In this document: piece by piece, positions 5,417 to 36,392 of the stretch
How the letters are laid out: the number at the start of each line of letters is the position of its first letter
Position numbering within the stretch: position 1 is the first letter of the stretch
Virus record (IMG/VR): IMGVR_UViG_2778260993_000007
Coordinates: 1 to 42,288 of that record
Strand: one strand, 5' to 3'
Origin: a virus
Taxonomy: Duplodnaviria; Heunggongvirae; Uroviricota; Caudoviricetes
Length of the DNA: 42,288 bases
Made by a program: the position numbers and the translations under genes
Notes under the pieces: model-generated
Seen by the model: the letters and a program-made list of their open reading frames with translations, nothing else
The model's database searches: none
Told to the model about the DNA's origin: nothing

Positions 5417-5435
5417 AACTTGTTACCTCGGTCTG

Positions 5436-5569: not shown

Positions 5570-6154
5570 TTATTGTTTGTTTTTTTCGTTCTGGTTGATG
5601 ACAAATTCAATGTAACTTTCGATCTTTGCCTTCTCTGTTTCAGGTAACAATGCGTAGCGCGAGCGGTCATAGTTGATAGTTGCAGGGTCATGCGGATGAA
5701 TCAGTAGTTCATATCCGTGACGCCCGAATGCAGATGCAACATTCTCCAGGGTGGAAATGGAAACGCTGACCTCATTGTTTAACAGGCGGCTTATTGTCAC
5801 CTGGGCGACGCCGGATGCGCGGTGAAGTTTTCCCTGAGTTGAAAGGTCGCGGCTTTCACTCATCCAGCGTTCCAGGTTGTGAGCTGCCAGCTGACCAATG
5901 TCGCTTGGTCCGACAGGCTGAAAACCTTCCTGAGAAAGCGAGCGATCGATATCAAGCCAGTTACGGGGTTTATTGGCGGCAGCTTCGATTTTTCGCGCAA
6001 CCTGGTCGCCGATAACCTTCTTGCCAAGAGCCCAGCGGTTTACCAGATTTGCCTGAGTTCCAAGTTTTTCTGCCATCCGCGTCTGAACACCATTGAATTC
6101 ACGGTCGATCAAGTCGTTGAGATTTTGCCTGCGGACGTCCTGGATACTTTTCAT
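5570..6154 (-). CDS. Prophage repressor (CI-like), tandem HTH, no S24 autopeptidase domain
   Basis: 194 aa; N-terminal XRE-type HTH (QTRMAEKLGTQANLVNRWALGKK) and a second HTH-like segment; divergent from Cro-like gene with operator repeats between; no Ala-Gly/Ser-Lys peptidase motifs seen. Confidence 0.7.
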   Translation of the reverse strand: MKSIQDVRRQNLNDLIDREFNGVQTRMAEKLGTQANLVNRWALGKKVIGDQVARKIEAAANKPRNWLDIDRSLSQEGFQPVGPSDIGQLAAHNLERWMSESRDLSTQGKLHRASGVAQVTISRLLNNEVSVSISTLENVASAFGRHGYELLIHPHDPATINYDRSRYALLPETEKAKIESYIEFVINQNEKNKQ

Positions 6155-15767: not shown

Positions 15768-15844
15768 TGGCGTGGCATGCAGGATTCGAACCTGCGACCA
15801 ACCGCTTAGAAGGCGATTGCTCTGTCCAACTGAGCTAATGCCAC
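15768..15844 (-). tRNA. tRNA-Arg (anticodon UCU)
   Basis: 77-nt cloverleaf on minus strand: acceptor GTGGCAT/ATGCCAC, D-arm GCTC...GAGC, anticodon loop CTTCTAA, T-arm GCAGGTTCGAATCCTGC, 3' GCCA; resembles but is not identical to E. coli argU. Confidence 0.8.
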
Positions 15845-30913: not shown

Positions 30914-31441
30914 TCAATGGCTGTTTATGGCTTCTAAAGAATCTTCTGCACTTATCGGCAAAGCAATAGCATCCTTGTTAGATGTGCTATTGCTTTCCAG
31001 AACGATGGAAATCCAATCCTCTTGGTTTTTATTAATTGTGCTGACAGCCATGATAGCATTCAAATCGTTTTTATATATTTCTGATCGAATAAGACCTTTC
31101 CTGAATAATTTAGTTAAGCTTTCCGCTATCGACATCGCACGAATGCTAACTTTACTAAGCTCAATGACGTCACTACCTGCGACTTTAGCGTGTTGAGAAA
31201 GAGCCATCAAAGCTATATGCGAAAATGTTTCTTCTTTTGAAAAACCATTACTTAAAGACAGGAGTGATACACTAGCTCCGTATGGGGTGAGCTTATATCC
31301 TGATACATTCAATGCATGCTCTACAAAGATAAGAGCATCAGTTGTAGAAGCATGGATATTGTTACTTTTTTGTTTTTTCGCAATAAATAAAAAAACAAAA
31401 TTAATAATTACGATGCCGACAATGATTAAGAAAACTTCCAT
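30914..31441 (-). CDS. Membrane-anchored hypothetical protein (accessory)
   Basis: 175 aa; N-terminal TM helix MEVFLIIVGIVIINFVFLFIA; AT-rich; promoter, operator and first codons duplicated in inverted orientation at 35151..35200. Confidence 0.6.
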   Translation of the reverse strand: MEVFLIIVGIVIINFVFLFIAKKQKSNNIHASTTDALIFVEHALNVSGYKLTPYGASVSLLSLSNGFSKEETFSHIALMALSQHAKVAGSDVIELSKVSIRAMSIAESLTKLFRKGLIRSEIYKNDLNAIMAVSTINKNQEDWISIVLESNSTSNKDAIALPISAEDSLEAINSH

Positions 31442-31481
31442 TGCTTTTCCTCACAATAACATTACCTTAAAGGTAATATTT
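31432..31481. repeat. Inverted repeat IR-1, left copy
   Basis: About 50 bp (operator, promoter, RBS, ATGGAAGTTTTCT) is the reverse complement of 35151..35200. Confidence 0.7.
31462..31476. promoter_or_regulatory. Operator-like site upstream of membrane protein gene 30914..31441
   Basis: TTACC-TTAAA-GGTAA; part of 50-bp inverted repeat shared with 35151..35200. Confidence 0.5.
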
Positions 31482-31501
31482 TGTGTTAATGTAATCAAGT
31501 G

Positions 31502-31900
31502 TTAAGTGTAAACCTCCTGCTGTTCAGTGGTGATTTTACCCGGCAACACCTTTTTAGCTTTGCGTGGGTTAACTACATGGCCTTTAGTCCAGTAATCGTA
31601 GAGCACATCGTCACACTCTTCCTGATACTGGATTACCTTGTCGCGGATTTCAGGGCGTACTTTGTTTGGACTGATGCTGTTCAACCAAGCTGCCAATTTT
31701 CGTAAAGCCATACAAATCATGGCTTGCACCCCACCGGCAGAAGGTATGGTGATTTCCACCATACCCTTCGAGAAGCGTTGAGAAATCTTCTTATGTTGAG
31801 ATTTCCAGTCTAGCCCCATTCCCTCAACGATAGGTTTCATTGGGGTATACGGTTCACCGTTGTGATTGACAACATAAAGATCTGCGCCGTGGAATGGCAC
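31502..31900 (-). CDS. Putative antirepressor-like protein (P22-antirepressor N-terminal-like domain)
   Basis: 132 aa; segment GEPYTPMKPIVEGMGLDWKSQ...GGVQAM resembles N-terminal domains of phage antirepressors; weak RBS, start uncertain. Confidence 0.45.
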   Translation of the reverse strand: MPFHGADLYVVNHNGEPYTPMKPIVEGMGLDWKSQHKKISQRFSKGMVEITIPSAGGVQAMICMALRKLAAWLNSISPNKVRPEIRDKVIQYQEECDDVLYDYWTKGHVVNPRKAKKVLPGKITTEQQEVYT

Positions 31901-31994
31901 GTTGATAATAGTGACAAATTTGAAACATCGCTGGTTGTAAGCCAGCAGATGCTCGTTATTTTACATCGCGGTACAATTTCTCGCTGGTGGCTCT

Positions 31995-32328
31995 TTTACA
32001 CACCTTAACCAAATACGGTTGATTTTAATATTTCTAAGCGCTTATCATTACCTTTTCGGTAAATTTACATCGCATTCCTCTTGTGCCATAGTAATCGGGC
32101 ACTGGCAAAATCCAGTGCCGGGATTGGTCTCCCGGATTACTACAGAGGCACATATGCCGCATAAGCGGTTTTTTTATGTGTAAAGCGCACCTATTCTATG
32201 GTGGGCTGTGTGGGGGCACCGAAAGGTGCGCCGGGTCCTTTGTAGCCGGTAAGACCAACTCTGCACAGTTCACCACCATCTGATTGGTCTCAGCGGTGGT
32301 GATTAACCTAACTACAAAGGTGATCGCC
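31995..32328. repeat. Inverted repeat IR-2, left copy (antirepressor leader)
   Basis: About 330 bp, roughly 85-90 percent identical to the reverse complement of 34790..35125. Confidence 0.65.
32048..32062. promoter_or_regulatory. Operator-like site in leader of BRO-type antirepressor gene
   Basis: TTACC-TTTTC-GGTAA adjacent to putative -35 TTTACA. Confidence 0.5.
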
Positions 32329-33021
32329 ATGAATACCAAACCTTCCATCTTTTCCTTTGAGTCATCCTGCCAGATCCGTATGTTCATGATTGACGGAGAA
32401 CCTTGGTTTGTCACCAAAGATGTGTGCAATGCTTTGAATATTGATGTTACACAAGCGAGAAAACTTGATAAAAAAGGCTGGAACAAAAAGGGGCTGTATT
32501 CAATACAGACCCCTGGTGGAATACAAGAACTATCCATCGTTTCAGAATCAGGTCTCTACATCCTTATTCTGCGTTGCAAAGAGGCAATGACTGAGGGAAC
32601 GAGAGCATTCAGATTTCTTGAATGGGTTACAGGTGAGGTTCTTCCTCAGATCCGCCGCACCGGAAGTTACATTAAAAACTCGCTCCCGCAGGAAGAACGC
32701 ATAAAGATGGTTGCCGACCAGGTAGCCAACGCCACGGCGTCAGCAGTAATGCAGGCGATGAAGATAGAGAACAAAACCTACAGCGCCCCGCTGAAGCCCG
32801 GCTACCGCAGTTTGATTCACTCGCCGTCTGGTGTTCTCGGCCTGACGGAGAACTCACTGCTGATGAATCTGCTGAACCAGTTACAGGAAGACGGGCACGA
32901 CGTATCGGGCGCGGCGGCGGAGCTGACCACCATGTTCTGCTACATCGTCGGTGTGAGCAAATGCCTGCGTGATATCCAGACGCACGCGGAGTACATCAAC
33001 GACAAGGCAGGGTTCTTCTGA
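32329..33021 (+). CDS. Antirepressor, BRO-N domain plus shared C-terminal domain
   Basis: Start refined to MNTKPSIF (AAGGTGA RBS); BRO-N-like N-terminus (FMIDGEPWFVTKDVCNALN...GEVLPQIRRTGSY); C-terminal about 80 aa identical to C-terminus of 34133..34789. Confidence 0.7.
   Translation: MNTKPSIFSFESSCQIRMFMIDGEPWFVTKDVCNALNIDVTQARKLDKKGWNKKGLYSIQTPGGIQELSIVSESGLYILILRCKEAMTEGTRAFRFLEWVTGEVLPQIRRTGSYIKNSLPQEERIKMVADQVANATASAVMQAMKIENKTYSAPLKPGYRSLIHSPSGVLGLTENSLLMNLLNQLQEDGHDVSGAAAELTTMFCYIVGVSKCLRDIQTHAEYINDKAGFF
32770..33021. repeat. Inverted repeat IR-3, left copy (shared antirepressor C-domain coding region)
   Basis: About 250 bp nearly identical to reverse complement of 34133..34385; the few differences seen are synonymous. 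Confidence 0.7.
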
Positions 33022-33059
33022 CAGAACGGCGGCACAGGGATGTGCAAAACGGAACTATC

Positions 33060-33071
33060 GTGACATGTCAC
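33060..33071. repeat. 12-bp perfect palindrome GTGACATGTCAC (copy 3 of 3)
   Basis: Exact 12-mer between BRO-type antirepressor stop and its terminator. Confidence 0.6.
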
Positions 33072-33096
33072 AGGCCGCTTTCGCGGCCTTGTTTTT
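33072..33096 (+). terminator. Terminator after BRO-type antirepressor gene
   Basis: AGGCCGC-TTTC-GCGGCCT followed by TGTTTTT. Confidence 0.65.
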
Positions 33097-33256
33097 AACG
33101 AATGCCACCGCCGCCCGGGCTGGAATCCGCAGAACGCCCACCGCAGCGGGAGCCGTCAGCGGCAGTATCGCTGTCGTGCTGACAACGACCGGCAAAGGCC
33201 TGAGTTGAAGCTACCAGAGACAACAAAACGAACAGTGCAGCAAATGCTTTTTTCAT
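33095..33256 (-). CDS. Possible small secreted peptide
   Basis: Signal-peptide-like N-terminus MKKAFAALFVLLSLVASTQAFA; but Gly/Ser-rich remainder overlaps a GC-rich terminator region; may be non-coding. Confidence 0.2.
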   Translation of the reverse strand: MKKAFAALFVLLSLVASTQAFAGRCQHDSDTAADGSRCGGRSADSSPGGGGIR

Positions 33257-33325
33257 TGTGAAATTTCCATCTATAAGCCACCTCAATGTGGCGTCAATGA
33301 GTGTAGTACTGACTTTTGTTTCGTC

Positions 33326-33351
33326 CACAAAAAAGCCCGCGCTGCGGGCTT
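33326..33351 (-). terminator. Terminator after gene 33355..33987
   Basis: Minus-strand AGCCCGC-AGC-GCGGGCT followed by TTTTTTG directly after stop codon. Confidence 0.7.
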
Positions 33352-33354
33352 CTG

Positions 33355-33987
33355 TTAATGCAGTTTATCTTTGCTTATAACCAGTAGTCTGTGGGTATGC
33401 ACATCTTTATCACTGCCCCAACAGAAATCAGCCCACTGGCTATAGAAATCATCCCATGATGTCATGAAGCTAAGAGGTCTATCTTCTTCAGAGCCATCTG
33501 AAACGTATACATTATATCCTGGGGTGTTTATAGCCCAAGAAATCATTCTTTCCCAGAATCTTCTCCCATCGATTGTTTGTTGCTCATCAGATACAACGAT
33601 CGCATATTGCTCTAGGAAGAACTGAAAAAAAATCTGAGGCAAACCATGAACAGCACGGTCATGAATAACATTAGGCGTACGCCATACCATGATCTGCGTA
33701 CATGTTCTTTTGGCTTCGACGATATCTTCCCGAAAGATTAACTTAACCGCATACACCGTTTCTGGAGTATCGCTGGTAGTAATCATTCTGTAATGATCGC
33801 CATTACAAGATTTTACAAGGCGATAACCATAAGGTGTTGTGAATCCCGGAAGAACGAAATCAACCACACCTTTCGCTAAGTAGCTTTCGGTGTGACTAGT
33901 GTTCTTCTCAGACATGTTCAGTTTTCTATCGAAATCTGCTTCTGGGATAATGTATGGCATCGCTTTTCTTGTTGTATTTGTTCTCAT
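33355..33987 (-). CDS. Hypothetical protein at centre of antirepressor island
   Basis: 210 aa; own operator-like site upstream (about 34047..34061) and strong terminator directly after stop; no recognised domain. Confidence 0.55.
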   Translation of the reverse strand: MRTNTTRKAMPYIIPEADFDRKLNMSEKNTSHTESYLAKGVVDFVLPGFTTPYGYRLVKSCNGDHYRMITTSDTPETVYAVKLIFREDIVEAKRTCTQIMVWRTPNVIHDRAVHGLPQIFFQFFLEQYAIVVSDEQQTIDGRRFWERMISWAINTPGYNVYVSDGSEEDRPLSFMTSWDDFYSQWADFCWGSDKDVHTHRLLVISKDKLH

Positions 33988-34046
33988 TTCGTCCTCCCAT
34001 GTTTGGCTACAGGACGCGTTTTGAAGGGAAGATTAAAAATGCTTTC

Positions 34047-34061
34047 TTACCCTTGAGGTAA
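34047..34061. promoter_or_regulatory. Operator-like site upstream of gene 33355..33987
   Basis: TTACC-CTTGA-GGTAA in the 145-bp gap between AntA-type gene stop and next start. Confidence 0.5.
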
Positions 34062-34132
34062 TAGTACGCTATTCACCCCCAGTCTGCAATCTGTACAGAA
34101 TTATTTAAAGGCACGTCCCTGTGCCGCCGCCG

Positions 34133-34385
34133 TCAGAAGAACCCTGCCTTGTCGTTGATGTATTCCGCGTGCGTCTGGATATCACGCAGGCATTTGCTCA
34201 CACCAACGATGTAGCAAAACATGGTTGTCAGCTCCGCCGCCGCGCCCGATACATCGTGCCCGTCTTCCTGCAACTGGTTCAGCAAATTCATCAGCAGTGA
34301 GTTCTCCGTCAGGCCGAGAACACCAGACGGCGAATGAATCAGGCTACGGTAGCCGGGCTTCAGTGGGGCGCTGTATTCTTTTTTG
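34133..34385. repeat. Inverted repeat IR-3, right copy
   Basis: See left copy. Confidence 0.7.
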
Positions 34386-34789
34386 TCTTCCAGCTTGATC
34401 GCCTCCATAATGGCGGGCATGAAGCCTGACAAGACCTTCTCCACTTTTGTTTCTTGTTGTCTTAAACGTTTCTCGCATTCAATGAAGTAGCGTCGCACCT
34501 GGCGACCTTTTTCGTTACGCTCGACCATCGCCAGCTCTTTGGCTGTATCAAGGGTGAGGTGGTACTCTTTGCGGTTGTGGCCGCCTCTACCAGATGTTTG
34601 CTTTCCCAAATTGGAAAGCAAAATATAGTCTTGATTTTCAATGAATTCGTATTCTGATATGCGATTTGTAATCCATGCTGCAAACACCTTTTTAACACCT
34701 AAAAAAGCGTGCAGATCGCGGGCATTACAAAGTAGGGCTGTTTCGTTAGATATAGTGCCGTTGAATACGGGGATGAGTTGAGCGTTCAT
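34133..34789 (-). CDS. Antirepressor, AntA/AntB-type N-terminal domain plus shared C-terminal domain
   Basis: 218 aa; AntA-like N-terminus ([34 protein letters not shown]); C-terminal domain identical in protein sequence to that of 32329..33021. Confidence 0.7.
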
Positions 34790-35125
34790 GATGGCGTCTC
34801 CACTTAGCGAATTACATCACCACCGCTGAGACCAATCAGATGGTGGTGAACTGAACGGAGTTGGTCTTACCGGCCTAAGTGGTACCGGCGTCCTTTCGGA
34901 CCCCCATTCAGCCCACCATAATTCTGGCATGACTGTGCTATACGCATAAAAAAACCACGTCTGGCGTGGTATGCGCCACTTAGTAATCCGGGAGACCAAT
35001 CCCGGCACTGGATTTTGCCAGTGCCCGATTACTATGGCACAAGAGGAGTGCAATGTAAATTTACCGCAAAGGTAATGATAAACGCGAAGAAATATTAAAA
35101 TCAACCGTATTTGGTTGATTGCGTT
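34790..35125. repeat. Inverted repeat IR-2, right copy (antirepressor leader)
   Basis: See left copy; ends at the AntA-type gene start codon. Confidence 0.65.
35061..35075. promoter_or_regulatory. Operator-like site in leader of AntA-type antirepressor gene
   Basis: TTACC-GCAAA-GGTAA; inverted counterpart of the site at 32048. Confidence 0.5.
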
Positions 35126-35150
35126 TAACGCTTGATCACCTGAAAGCAAG

Positions 35151-35200
35151 ATATTACCTTTAAGGTAATGTTATTGTGAGGAAAAGCAATGGAAGTTTTC
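35151..35200. repeat. Inverted repeat IR-1, right copy
   Basis: Reverse complement of 31432..31481 by direct comparison. Confidence 0.7.
35154..35168. promoter_or_regulatory. Operator-like site upstream of membrane/zinc-ribbon gene 35189
   Basis: TTACC-TTTAA-GGTAA, 21 bp before start codon. Confidence 0.5.
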
Positions 35201-35917
35201 TGGATAGTTGTTGGTGTGGTTGCGGTGATTATTTACGTTATCAACCAGAACAAGACTAAGATCTCTGATCGTACGGTCGTTAATTATAACAAAACGATAA
35301 AGACCGAAGATGGGGAGATAACGATTAATCGTACACAGGTGATAGAACACACCTCTACTCAGTTTCAAAAAACTGGAGGTAATGCGCCTAATATTTCCGC
35401 ACCTCCTGCTTATGATAGTGCGGTAATCCAGACATATTATAAACAGCAGGAGTTAGCAAAAGAGAGGCAACTGATTCAGCCAAAGCCGTTTACAGCTGAG
35501 CTTCCACCTGGAGTGTCAATGCGTCCGGCATATCATGGAAGATTCCCTGGTGATGACATATCGTCTCAGTCATCTAAAAAAGCACCTCAGGCAGTATCAG
35601 AGCCAGCAAGAATACCTTCTGTATCGCCGCCAAAAGAAGAATCAGCTAACAGAGTTTCAAGTGGTAGCAAGCAGTGCTTGCGATGCAGAATAAACCTACC
35701 ATATGAAAAATTCAGGAAATCGTCAAAAAATCCAGATGGATTGACTAAGTGGTGTGCAAGGTGTCTCGATGGCCCAAAGAATACACGCCATATGAAGTGG
35801 TGCCCAATTTGTAATGTCCGCAGAAAACGAACAAGCTTTTACCCTAATAATCAAAATGCGGATGGCTTAATGGCATGGTGCAAAACGTGCTGGGACGAGC
35901 ACAAAGCGAAACGATAG
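35189..35917 (+). CDS. Membrane-anchored protein with tandem C-terminal zinc-ribbon repeats
   Basis: 242 aa; N-terminal TM helix MEVFWIVVGVVAVIIYVI; two about 35-aa repeats each with CxxC...DGL..WCxxC. Confidence 0.6.
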   Translation: MEVFWIVVGVVAVIIYVINQNKTKISDRTVVNYNKTIKTEDGEITINRTQVIEHTSTQFQKTGGNAPNISAPPAYDSAVIQTYYKQQELAKERQLIQPKPFTAELPPGVSMRPAYHGRFPGDDISSQSSKKAPQAVSEPARIPSVSPPKEESANRVSSGSKQCLRCRINLPYEKFRKSSKNPDGLTKWCARCLDGPKNTRHMKWCPICNVRRKRTSFYPNNQNADGLMAWCKTCWDEHKAKR

Positions 35918-35939
35918 GCCGCTCTTGCGGCCTTTAAAT

Positions 35940-36197
35940 TTACCGGGTTTGTTTTCGTAATTGTTCGGCACAATAGTCGAGATGTGTTTGCAGATCCCGC
36001 ATAGACATCTGTGAGCTGGTGACGTAGTTAATCAGTGCAGTCAGTTCGGCAAGTGGGCCATCGACATTAAATCCATCCTTATCGAGCTCCCGGAGTAATT
36101 TCATCAAGTGCGATCCCTCCACCAGTGATCTGACGCCTCCCGGCGTGTGAATCCTTTCGGTAAATCCGTCTTCCAGTGGATAGTGATACTGCTGCAT
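35940..36197 (-). CDS. Small protein homologous to the antirepressor C-terminal domain (candidate SOS-induced antirepressor)
   Basis: About 85 aa from ATG with GGAGAAG RBS (track ORF extends to 36215); aligns with the shared antirepressor C-domain (TPGGVRSLVEGSHLMKLLRELDKDGFNVDGPLAELT...MRDLQTHLDY); LexA box immediately upstream. Confidence 0.6.
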   Translation of the reverse strand: MQQYHYPLEDGFTERIHTPGGVRSLVEGSHLMKLLRELDKDGFNVDGPLAELTALINYVTSSQMSMRDLQTHLDYCAEQLRKQTR

Positions 36198-36218
36198 CTT
36201 ATCTTCTCCATGCAATAA

Positions 36219-36234
36219 CTGTATAAATATACAG
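36219..36234. promoter_or_regulatory. LexA (SOS) box
   Basis: aaCTGTataaatatACAGta: CTGT-N8-ACAG with AT-rich spacer matching the enterobacterial LexA consensus TACTGTATATATATACAGTA at most positions; about 22 bp upstream of start of minus-strand gene 35940..36197. Confidence 0.65.
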
Positions 36235-36273
36235 TATCAAATAATTTATTTGCTATCCAGCACGTTTTGCGAA

Positions 36274-36288
36274 TCACCTGAAAGGTAA
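36274..36288. promoter_or_regulatory. Operator-like site TCACC-TGAAA-GGTAA upstream of tail fiber gene
   Basis: 9/10 match; in divergent intergenic region between LexA-box gene and tail fiber gene. Confidence 0.45.
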
Positions 36289-36392
36289 TATCTGTTCGTA
36301 TTTATGGGTTGTCTATCCATATATGGTTTTTCAGGTAATAGAATAACCGGATATGCGGCGCAACGGGTGCTGCGACTATCTGGAGATTTAAC

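Follow-up and report, generated by a model that had tools for sequence, protein, structure and literature searches.

The Rep–Ant antirepression switch of Salmonella phage SPC32H was reportedly described by Kim & Ryu (2013) and Kim et al. (2016), with structures PDB 5D4Z and 5D50, and the shuffling of Bro-N, KilA-N and P22_AR_N domains in phage regulators is said to have been set out by Iyer et al. (2002). Here we analyze an antirepressor island in IMG/VR record IMGVR_UViG_2778260993_000007, a Caudoviricetes sequence of 42,288 nucleotides (nt) whose full length is referred to below as the window. The island is probably the anti-immunity region of a temperate podophage of the epsilon15/phiV10/SPC32H type, with three Ant-domain proteins that would each be held under a different lock.

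Two other described systems bear on this locus. P1 keeps its ant gene silent through the joint action of C4 and C1 (PMC8198154). In Gifsy-1, IsrK read-through controls translation of the downstream antirepressor AnrP, IsrK in trans activates translation of the downstream antirepressor, and orf45 is conserved in nucleotide but not in amino-acid (aa) sequence (PMC4825925). The island appears to tie together in one locus three elements of phage regulation that had been studied apart: the Rep/Ant structure of SPC32H, the c4 antisense lock of P1 and the IsrK RNA of Salmonella.

Rep/Ant switch and operator-like palindromes

The phages nearest to the window are TL-2011b, phiv142-3 and phiV10, which are epsilon15-like podophages. 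The island lies where the initial annotation had placed it, between the gene for a 1007-aa internal virion protein and the tail-fibre gene. Outside it, the window encodes a full-length match to the SPC32H repressor Rep, and the right end of the island carries a small antirepressor of the SPC32H Ant type (coordinates and scores in Table 1). For the 91-aa open reading frame (ORF) at 35940-36215 the most likely start is ATG 36197, which gives a protein of 85 aa. LexA boxes have the consensus CTGT-N8-ACAG, and CTGTATATTTATACAG in the small-ant promoter fits it. Since Rep and the small Ant both match chains of 5D50 and the small-ant promoter contains a LexA box, the phage of the window is predicted with confidence to have an SPC32H-type Rep/Ant switch. 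Rep would be the target of all three Ant domains.

The palindrome ATTACC-N5-GGTAAT, with at most one mismatch, occurs 15 times in the window versus 0.07 times expected. Six copies fall in the island (31461, 32047, 34046, 35060, 35153 and 36273), each at or near the start of one of six transcription units. The others are at 5435, 5497, 6209, 8516, 8578, 13006, 13024, 16165 and 39082, and the first three of these flank the rep gene. Further sites precede several rightward gene blocks. Taken together, the palindromes resemble a repressor regulon scattered over the whole prophage, as with C1 of P1. An ATTACC...GGTAAT operator consensus had reportedly already been proposed in the epsilon15 genome paper (Kropinski 2007).

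The shared Ant domain of the two large antirepressors

The two remaining Ant domains belong to larger proteins, Bro-N::Ant and AntA::Ant, named by their N- and C-terminal domains. ATG 32329 is the most likely start of the Bro-N gene, in place of TTG 32284; apart from this start and that of the small ant gene, the gene coordinates of the initial annotation hold. In the AntA protein, the match to 5D50 chain E spans residues 137-213 (E=4.6e-14), and the small Ant shares 45% identity with the C-terminal domain common to both large antirepressors. By homology, this shared domain is the Rep-binding Ant domain of SPC32H. A search for homologues of the 80-aa C-terminal domain returned 18 short proteins and no multidomain ones.

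The last 80 codons of the two genes differ at 12 positions, all synonymous with no replacement, so the 80 encoded residues are identical, in agreement with the first reading of the repeat that encodes them. Across relatives, 64 copies of the domain comprise 61 distinct DNA sequences but only 17 distinct proteins, with a pN/pS ratio of 0.093. Copies within one locus differ on average by 12.9 nt, compared with 11.8 nt between loci, and therefore give no sign of concerted evolution. The gene conversion between arms that had been suggested is thus not borne out. The selection that had been proposed is evident as purifying selection, which most simply reflects the fit of each copy to the same Rep and not, as first thought, of the copies to each other.

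Inverted repeats as parts of two convergent modules

Three nested inverted repeats (IR) had been described in the island, and a repeat search of the window recovered all of them in place. IR-3 (I1 in the search) is 257 nt long at 93% identity. The core of IR-2 (I2; 32007-32142 / 34981-35116) has 136 nt at 96% and is extended through I5, I8 and I4 (I4, 32229-32303 / 34816-34890, 87%) to a leader repeat of about 300 nt. IR-1 (I3) has 90 nt at 87%, of which 50 nt (31431-31480 and 35150-35199) are the same in both arms and contain the operator palindrome, ribosome-binding site (RBS) and codons MEVF. Inverted repeats of such length and identity are far beyond chance.

When the arms were aligned to each other, the leaders were similar and the N-terminal coding parts were not; similarity returned at ...YSAPLKPG and ended about 22 nt beyond the stop codons. 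Divergence between the repeat arms is 4-13%. Read from the sequence, the nested repeats are the conserved parts, namely promoter/operator, leader and Ant domain, of two homologous convergent antirepressor modules arranged tail to tail. The variable parts of the modules appear as the b' loop of C4 with its b1/b2 targets, the N-terminal domain and the cargo genes. IR-1 proved, as first described, to hold the operator, promoter, RBS and first codons of two outward-facing genes for membrane-anchored proteins.

Predicted antisense RNA leaders

IR-2 had been read as the leaders of the two inward-facing antirepressor genes. This is correct but incomplete, as the leaders are more than untranslated sequence and have the features of P1 immI-type c4/IsrK control regions. 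In each leader the operator sits between the promoter-like sequences TTGATT-18-TATCAT and TTTACA-17-CATAGT, and the second promoter on the left would initiate at the 5' end of the IsrK model (32099). Both leaders contain predicted IsrK-like and C4 RNAs (Rfam RF01394 and RF01695, gathering scores 50 and 45). The c4-a1b1 motif RF03163 was also found in each leader, with 39.9 bits at 32086-32138, which falls short of the gathering score (46.7). Conservation of the C4 fold shows in compensatory changes at 14 of 27 pairs among 25 relatives; the variable spot is the loop of hairpin 2. In P1/P7, C4 is released from its transcript by RNase P; of this, the tRNA-like 3' ...CACCACCA end of C4 is visible in the sequence here.

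The a' segment (AGACCAA) is complementary to a1 and a2 (GATTGGTCTC) and is the same in both arms. The left b' loop CCTTTGTAG pairs with b2 (CTACAAAGG) at 32312-20, right over the RBS of the Bro-N gene, and with b1 (CTACAGAGG), the latter including one G-U pair. On the right, b1 and b2 both read CTAAGTGG and are matched by the b' loop CCACTTAG; this b2 covers the RBS of the AntA gene. Cognate b'-b2 complementarity is 8-9 nt in either arm. Duplex energies, taken from loop-only sequences since stem-flanking bases blurred the contrast, were -12.0 to -13.9 kcal/mol for cognate and -3.6 to -6.9 kcal/mol for cross-arm pairs. Because the b' loops differ between the arms, each C4 RNA would be expected to gate its own gene only. 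The 3' end of C4 lies 48 nt (left) or 49 nt (right) upstream of the ant ATG.

Distribution and rearrangement in relatives

Relatives were collected by an exact-pattern scan of IMG/VR for the a'...a2 core, which yielded 119 loci. Among 19 b' loop types, the longest Watson-Crick run to the locus's own b2 averaged 8.6 nt, versus 4.3 nt with the b2 of other loci; the corresponding runs to b1 were 7.3 and 4.7 nt. The c4 leader drives Bro-N::Ant at 54 loci, AntA::Ant at 23, another N-domain fused to Ant at 9, and a gene without the Ant domain at 26. The operator palindrome lies 5' of 74 of the 86 leaders that drive an Ant-domain gene, versus 3 of the 26 that do not. The Ant domain therefore evidently goes together with the Rep type, the N-domains and b' classes being variable.

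Of 104 loci, 17 carry a pair of large Ant-domain genes, and in each case the pair is convergent. Their combinations are Bro-N/AntA, AntA/Bro-N', Bro-N/Bro-N' and Arc-controlled P22-type Ant/Bro-N. Very different modules can occupy the distal arm. In TL-2011b (L002 2812-3996) the left arm consists of an Arc gene and a full-length P22-type Ant with this Ant domain at its C-terminal end. The distal arm of MS 196-1 (L123 2683-5227) encodes an ORF6N-domain protein with extra cargo (DUF2335). A single arm is present in phiV10, in whose record (L003 3063-3292) a frameshift divides the Ant domain of the Bro-N antirepressor into parts in gp23 and gp22; the frameshift is either a true inactivating change or a sequencing error. 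Assembly error had been named as a possible source of the repeats. It is rejected, since the same two-armed layout, found at 17 loci in total, recurs in the complete E. coli genomes CE0007a, PF9285, A_5 and MS 196-1.

The comparison also agrees with the earlier expectation that relatives swap N-terminal domains at the repeat boundaries and that an arm occurs in both orientations. Loci L037 and L040 have collinear flanks around 3260 bp inverted at 98.4% identity, with breakpoints within the leader repeats. The L040 form is present in the complete genome PF9285 (100% identity) and also in A_5. No complete genome had at first matched L037 over its full length, and a misassembly was considered; this concern was dropped because the complete genome MS 196-1 is collinear with L037 over 5.1 kb at 98.9%. 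In MS 196-1, the window's left arm (32037-33334) is inverted on the small-Ant side, between collinear flanks. In L071 and L007 the AntA cassette is on the far side and the orientation of the cargo is unchanged. Inverted or replaced arms between collinear flanks thus point clearly to two kinds of crossover point, the conserved 5' part of the leader and the Ant domain, at which related prophages have flipped and exchanged whole cassettes.

Proposed working of the island

In a lysogen, Rep on the six operator-like island sites and LexA on the small ant gene would silence the island together, and C4 would stop translation of any leaky large-ant mRNA. DNA damage (SOS) would free the small Ant, the trigger as in SPC32H, which would strip Rep from the DNA. 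From the derepressed leaders, mRNA and the IsrK-like decoy (a1/b1) would then outnumber C4, and the two large Ants would add to Rep inactivation as a positive-feedback commitment step. Overexpression of ORF4, the Bro-N antirepressor of the related phage ZX5, lowered lysogeny (PMC9782041). A decoy role of IsrK would fit the Gifsy-1 activation in trans, an effect which PMC4825925 explains otherwise.

Several points weigh against this scheme. Rep is proposed as the binder of ATTACC-N5-GGTAAT from motif enrichment and position, and the positive-feedback role is our own suggestion. As the Ant of the large proteins is only 45% identical to the solved Ant, Rep binding by them is presumed from this likeness. 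Since a' and a2 are the same in both arms, the two C4 RNAs may cross-talk to some extent. The ORF list contains no intervening ORF between C4 and ant in either arm like the translationally coupled icd of P1/P7. It also contains no counterpart of orf45, whose stop overlaps the antirepressor start in Gifsy-1, since neither ant start coincides with the end of an ORF of 40 aa or more; neither published leader model therefore applies unchanged. The scheme also leaves unexplained the roles of the Bro-N and AntA domains and the need for three Ants.

A more speculative extension, which we consider possible but doubtful, is that the hypervariable C4 b' loop, with at least 19 classes that each match their own b1 and b2, serves as an immunity barcode among prophages of one repressor type, the two modules being two keys and two locks. 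The C4 of a superinfected lysogen would match one class, the other Ant would be translated, the shared Rep would be inactivated and immunity would be broken. A two-module prophage would keep the Ants of both classes silent when they come in. An arms race driven by cassettes exchanged at the leader and Ant-domain boundaries would follow, extending P1/P7 heteroimmunity. If the two-lock reading is true, it would explain the heteroimmunity of same-repressor prophages and the mosaic nature of their antirepressor genes.

Alternative explanations

A programmed invertible DNA switch of the Gin/Cin or shufflon type, in which a 3.3-kb or 1.1-kb segment flips at appreciable frequency and changes the genes expressed, would agree with the presence of the Bro-N arm and adjacent cargo in both orientations between collinear flanks (L037/L040; MS 196-1 versus PF9285 and the window). 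It is nevertheless very unlikely: there is no invertase or recombinase among island ORFs of at least 40 aa, and none of eight island proteins compared with Pfam and PHROGs is a recombinase. The repeats, 4-13% diverged, are fully explained by coding and regulatory homology; with both promoters being of one kind, a flip across the leaders would have little effect; none of the 17 two-armed loci showed an inversion of the cargo alone across IR-3, and the remaining variants are cassette replacements, not flips. The common plan of the arms and their long high-identity stretches could also suggest that one module was recently duplicated in inverted orientation and that gene conversion has kept the copies alike, yet this is hardly credible when the N-terminal domains (Bro-N, AntA) and membrane-protein bodies are unrelated, the b' classes differ and the shared domain carries 12 synonymous differences, with copies in one genome no closer than those in different genomes. 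Each arm type is, moreover, common by itself in single-arm prophages (54 Bro-N, 23 AntA). The pattern fits recombinational joining of two diverged modules.

Likeness to the immI region of P22 (mnt-arc-ant with the sar antisense RNA) had been noted for the position of the island, and it holds in that respect: the island sits at an analogous place, by the tail-fibre gene. The window contains a P22_AR_N fragment, and relatives of the TL-2011b kind have Arc and a full-length P22-type Ant as their left arm. That the window itself contains a rearranged P22-type immI is, however, most improbable. Neither tblastn with the TL-2011b Arc nor Pfam matches revealed an arc/mnt homologue in the island, sar not having been searched for; the P22-type gene is truncated at both ends, so that a full-length P22-type Ant (P22_AR_N plus C-terminal part) is represented in the window by a remnant only; the predicted regulatory RNAs belong to the C4 and IsrK families, and the repressor groups with SPC32H Rep and not with P22 C2. 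The P22 model is thus refuted for the working parts of the window and holds for position and for one module of some relatives. A further alternative is that the large proteins are not mainly antirepressors of their own Rep, with Bro-N and AntA acting on host DNA or on the repressors of other prophages and Ant mainly tetramerising. Bro-N, AntA and P22_AR_N are indeed interchangeable as N-domains, and the Ant of 5D50 was reportedly a tetramer. Gifsy-phage antirepressors are reported to act in trans on other prophages (PMC3121763). We judge this alternative unlikely in view of the co-occurrence of the Ant domain with the Rep-type operator, the strong purifying selection, which fits a fixed partner, and the ZX5 result, in which Bro-N overexpression pushes the phage's own development toward lysis (PMC9782041). 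An anti-immunity region with three differently locked Ant proteins is retained as the preferred explanation.

Other genes of the island

The 175-aa and 242-aa membrane-anchored proteins are unrelated, but their genes have promoter, operator, RBS and first four codons in common. Neither protein had a Pfam, NCBIfam or PADLOC match. The two CxxC...CxxC motifs of the 242-aa protein weakly match zinc-binding parts of endonuclease VII and Lar-like phage families.

The P22-type antirepressor remnant covers positions 13-136 of the 317 in phrog_524, and the window is 97% identical to the ant gene of CUS-3 at 31515-31911. Its equivalent is annotated as a pseudogene in CE0007a, and by sequence it is a dead fragment of a P22-type ant. 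About 100 bp between this fragment and the left leader (31901-32006) have no counterpart in the right arm or in L032, and may be a recombination scar.

The 77-aa gene is annotated as 53 aa in relatives and is kept beside the 3' end of the Bro-N gene in CE0007a, TL-2011b and MS 196-1. The central cargo slot is variable, with other genes, often YafO toxin genes, in its place in relatives. NCBIfam and PADLOC gave nothing for the 210-aa and 77-aa proteins. A tRNA gene lies mid-prophage at 15771-15844 on the minus strand (Rfam, 70 bits).

Table 1. Predicted features of the island and of the rep locus in window coordinates.
Feature	Coordinates	Strand	Basis and remarks
Rep prophage repressor	5570..6154	-	PDB 5D50 chain A (SPC32H repressor), E=4e-42, full length
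Membrane-anchored protein, 175 aa, begins MEVF	30914..31441	-	ORF; phrog_21690 full length
IR-1 left arm	31416..31505		I3, promoter scan; promoter-like TTAACA-16-CAAAAT, operator palindrome, RBS, first codons of 175-aa gene
Operator palindrome ATTACCTTAAAGGTAAT	31461-31477		Palindrome scan; in IR-1 left arm
P22-type antirepressor remnant (N-terminal domain only)	31502..31900	-	Pfam P22_AR_N, 9.7e-45
Left leader (IR-2 left arm)	32007..32328	+	I2/I5/I8/I4 repeats, promoter and terminator scan, sequence reading
Left leader promoters (tandem)	32019-32048, 32064-32092	+	Promoter scan; operator 32047-63
Left leader sites		+	a1 32122-31; b1 32140-48; terminator 32156-69; a2 32282-91; b2 32312-20 over RBS
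IsrK-like RNA, left	32099..32175	+	Rfam RF01394, 74.7 bits; carries a1 and b1, ends at intrinsic terminator
Putative C4 antisense RNA, left	32194..32280	+	RF01695, 74 bits; b' loop CCTTTGTAG 32237-45; a' AGACCAA 32252-58
Large antirepressor 1, Bro-N::Ant, 230 aa	32329..33021	+	Pfam Bro-N 2.1e-13; phrog_130, phrog_450
IR-3 left arm	32766..33022		I1; encodes Ant domain
Terminator-like hairpin between convergent operons	33072..33089	+	7-pair stem, 6 G-C, then T run
Small secreted or membrane protein, 77 aa	33095..33328	-	phrog_3117, phrog_14503 'membrane associated protein'; last gene of right-arm operon
Central cargo gene, 210 aa, GNAT-like fold	33355..33987	-	
Operator-like palindrome CTTACCCTTGAGGTAAT	34046..34062		1 mismatch; 5' of 210-aa gene
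IR-3 right arm	34132..34388		I1; encodes Ant domain
Large antirepressor 2, AntA::Ant, 218 aa	34133..34789	-	Pfam AntA 4.2e-26
Right leader (IR-2 right arm)	34790..35116	-	Repeats, promoter/terminator scan, sequence reading
Right leader promoters	35104-35075, 35059-35031	-	Promoter scan; operator 35060-76
Right leader sites		-	a1 35001-34992; b1 34983-76; terminator 34970-54; a2 34837-28; b2 34807-00 over RBS
Putative C4 antisense RNA, right	34839..34923	-	RF01695, 61.2 bits; b' loop CCACTTAG 34882-75; a' 34867-61
IsrK-like RNA, right	34948..35024	-	Rfam RF01394, 67.7 bits
IR-1 right arm	35125..35214		I3; operator 35153-35169, RBS, first codons of 242-aa gene
Membrane-anchored protein, 242 aa, two C-terminal Cys4 zinc-ribbon-like motifs	35189..35917	+	phrog_6762
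Small antirepressor Ant, 85 aa, SPC32H type	35940..36197	-	PDB 5D50 chain E, E=7.3e-47
LexA box CTGTATATTTATACAG	36219..36234	-	From sequence; in spacer of small-ant promoter TTGATA-17-TATTGC
Operator-like palindrome ATCACCTGAAAGGTAAT	36273..36289		1 mismatch; upstream of small-ant promoter

Significance and comparison with known systems

The initial annotation did not include the solved SPC32H Ant domain, its third, LexA-controlled copy (35940-36197) or the dead P22-type fragment (31502-31900). Many E. coli prophage proteins are annotated just as "Bro-N" or "AntA antirepressor", and their C-terminal half can now be assigned to a solved Rep-binding domain. Locks of the c4 type appear to fall into many specificity classes, each moving together with its N-terminal domain in a single exchangeable cassette. 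In pathogenic E. coli, both phage spread and serotype conversion are affected when such prophages are induced. In the literature searched, we found no description of the C-terminal domain of large antirepressors as the SPC32H Ant domain, of many b' classes travelling with the N-domain, or of a convergent two-module form with two different classes.

The window resembles SPC32H in its Rep homologue, its Ant homologue of about 85 aa, the LexA box in the ant promoter and the site just upstream of the tail-fibre gene. Unlike SPC32H, it adds two Ant domains fused to Bro-N and AntA, placed under antisense-RNA leaders and putative Rep operators instead of LexA. With the immI region of P1/P7 (c4-icd-ant; Citron & Schuster 1990, summarised in PMC8198154) it shares a C4 RNA, a1/b1 and a2/b2 complementary to a'/b', a b2 that covers the RBS, tandem promoters, a downstream antirepressor and specificity classes set apart by their pairing sequences; the palindrome between the tandem promoters is a candidate counterpart of the main-repressor operator. 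It differs in having no icd gene, a repressor that is Rep and not C1, other antirepressor domains, two units of different b' class in one genome, and an IsrK-like intrinsic terminator between b1 and C4.

As in the IsrK-orf45-anrP locus of Gifsy-1 (PMC4825925), an IsrK-family RNA and terminator lie 5' of an antirepressor gene and read-through would be needed. Unlike that locus, the window has no orf45-like ORF coupled to the ant start, and a C4 RNA occupies the interval; the published Gifsy-1 mechanism is activation by IsrK in trans, whereas a decoy of a1/b1 against C4 is suggested here. Since C4 follows the IsrK terminator in both arms (32175-32194 and 34923-34948), in the interval that orf45 takes in Gifsy-1, the orf45 region may itself be a C4 homologue. 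With P22 immI the window shares an accessory antirepressor region near the tail-spike or tail-fibre gene and a P22-type ant fragment, and its relatives have full Arc-Ant modules; the regulatory RNAs are of another family and the repressor is of another type.

The interchangeable N-domains on a common C-terminal module recall the shuffling of Bro-N, KilA-N and P22_AR_N. Here, unlike in that precedent, the common module is identified as the solved Ant and the exchange unit appears to include the cognate b' loop and its targets. The locus is no strict member of P1 immI, the Gifsy-1 IsrK locus or P22 immI. All of its components come from described families; what is new is how these known parts are arranged and not the kind of system.

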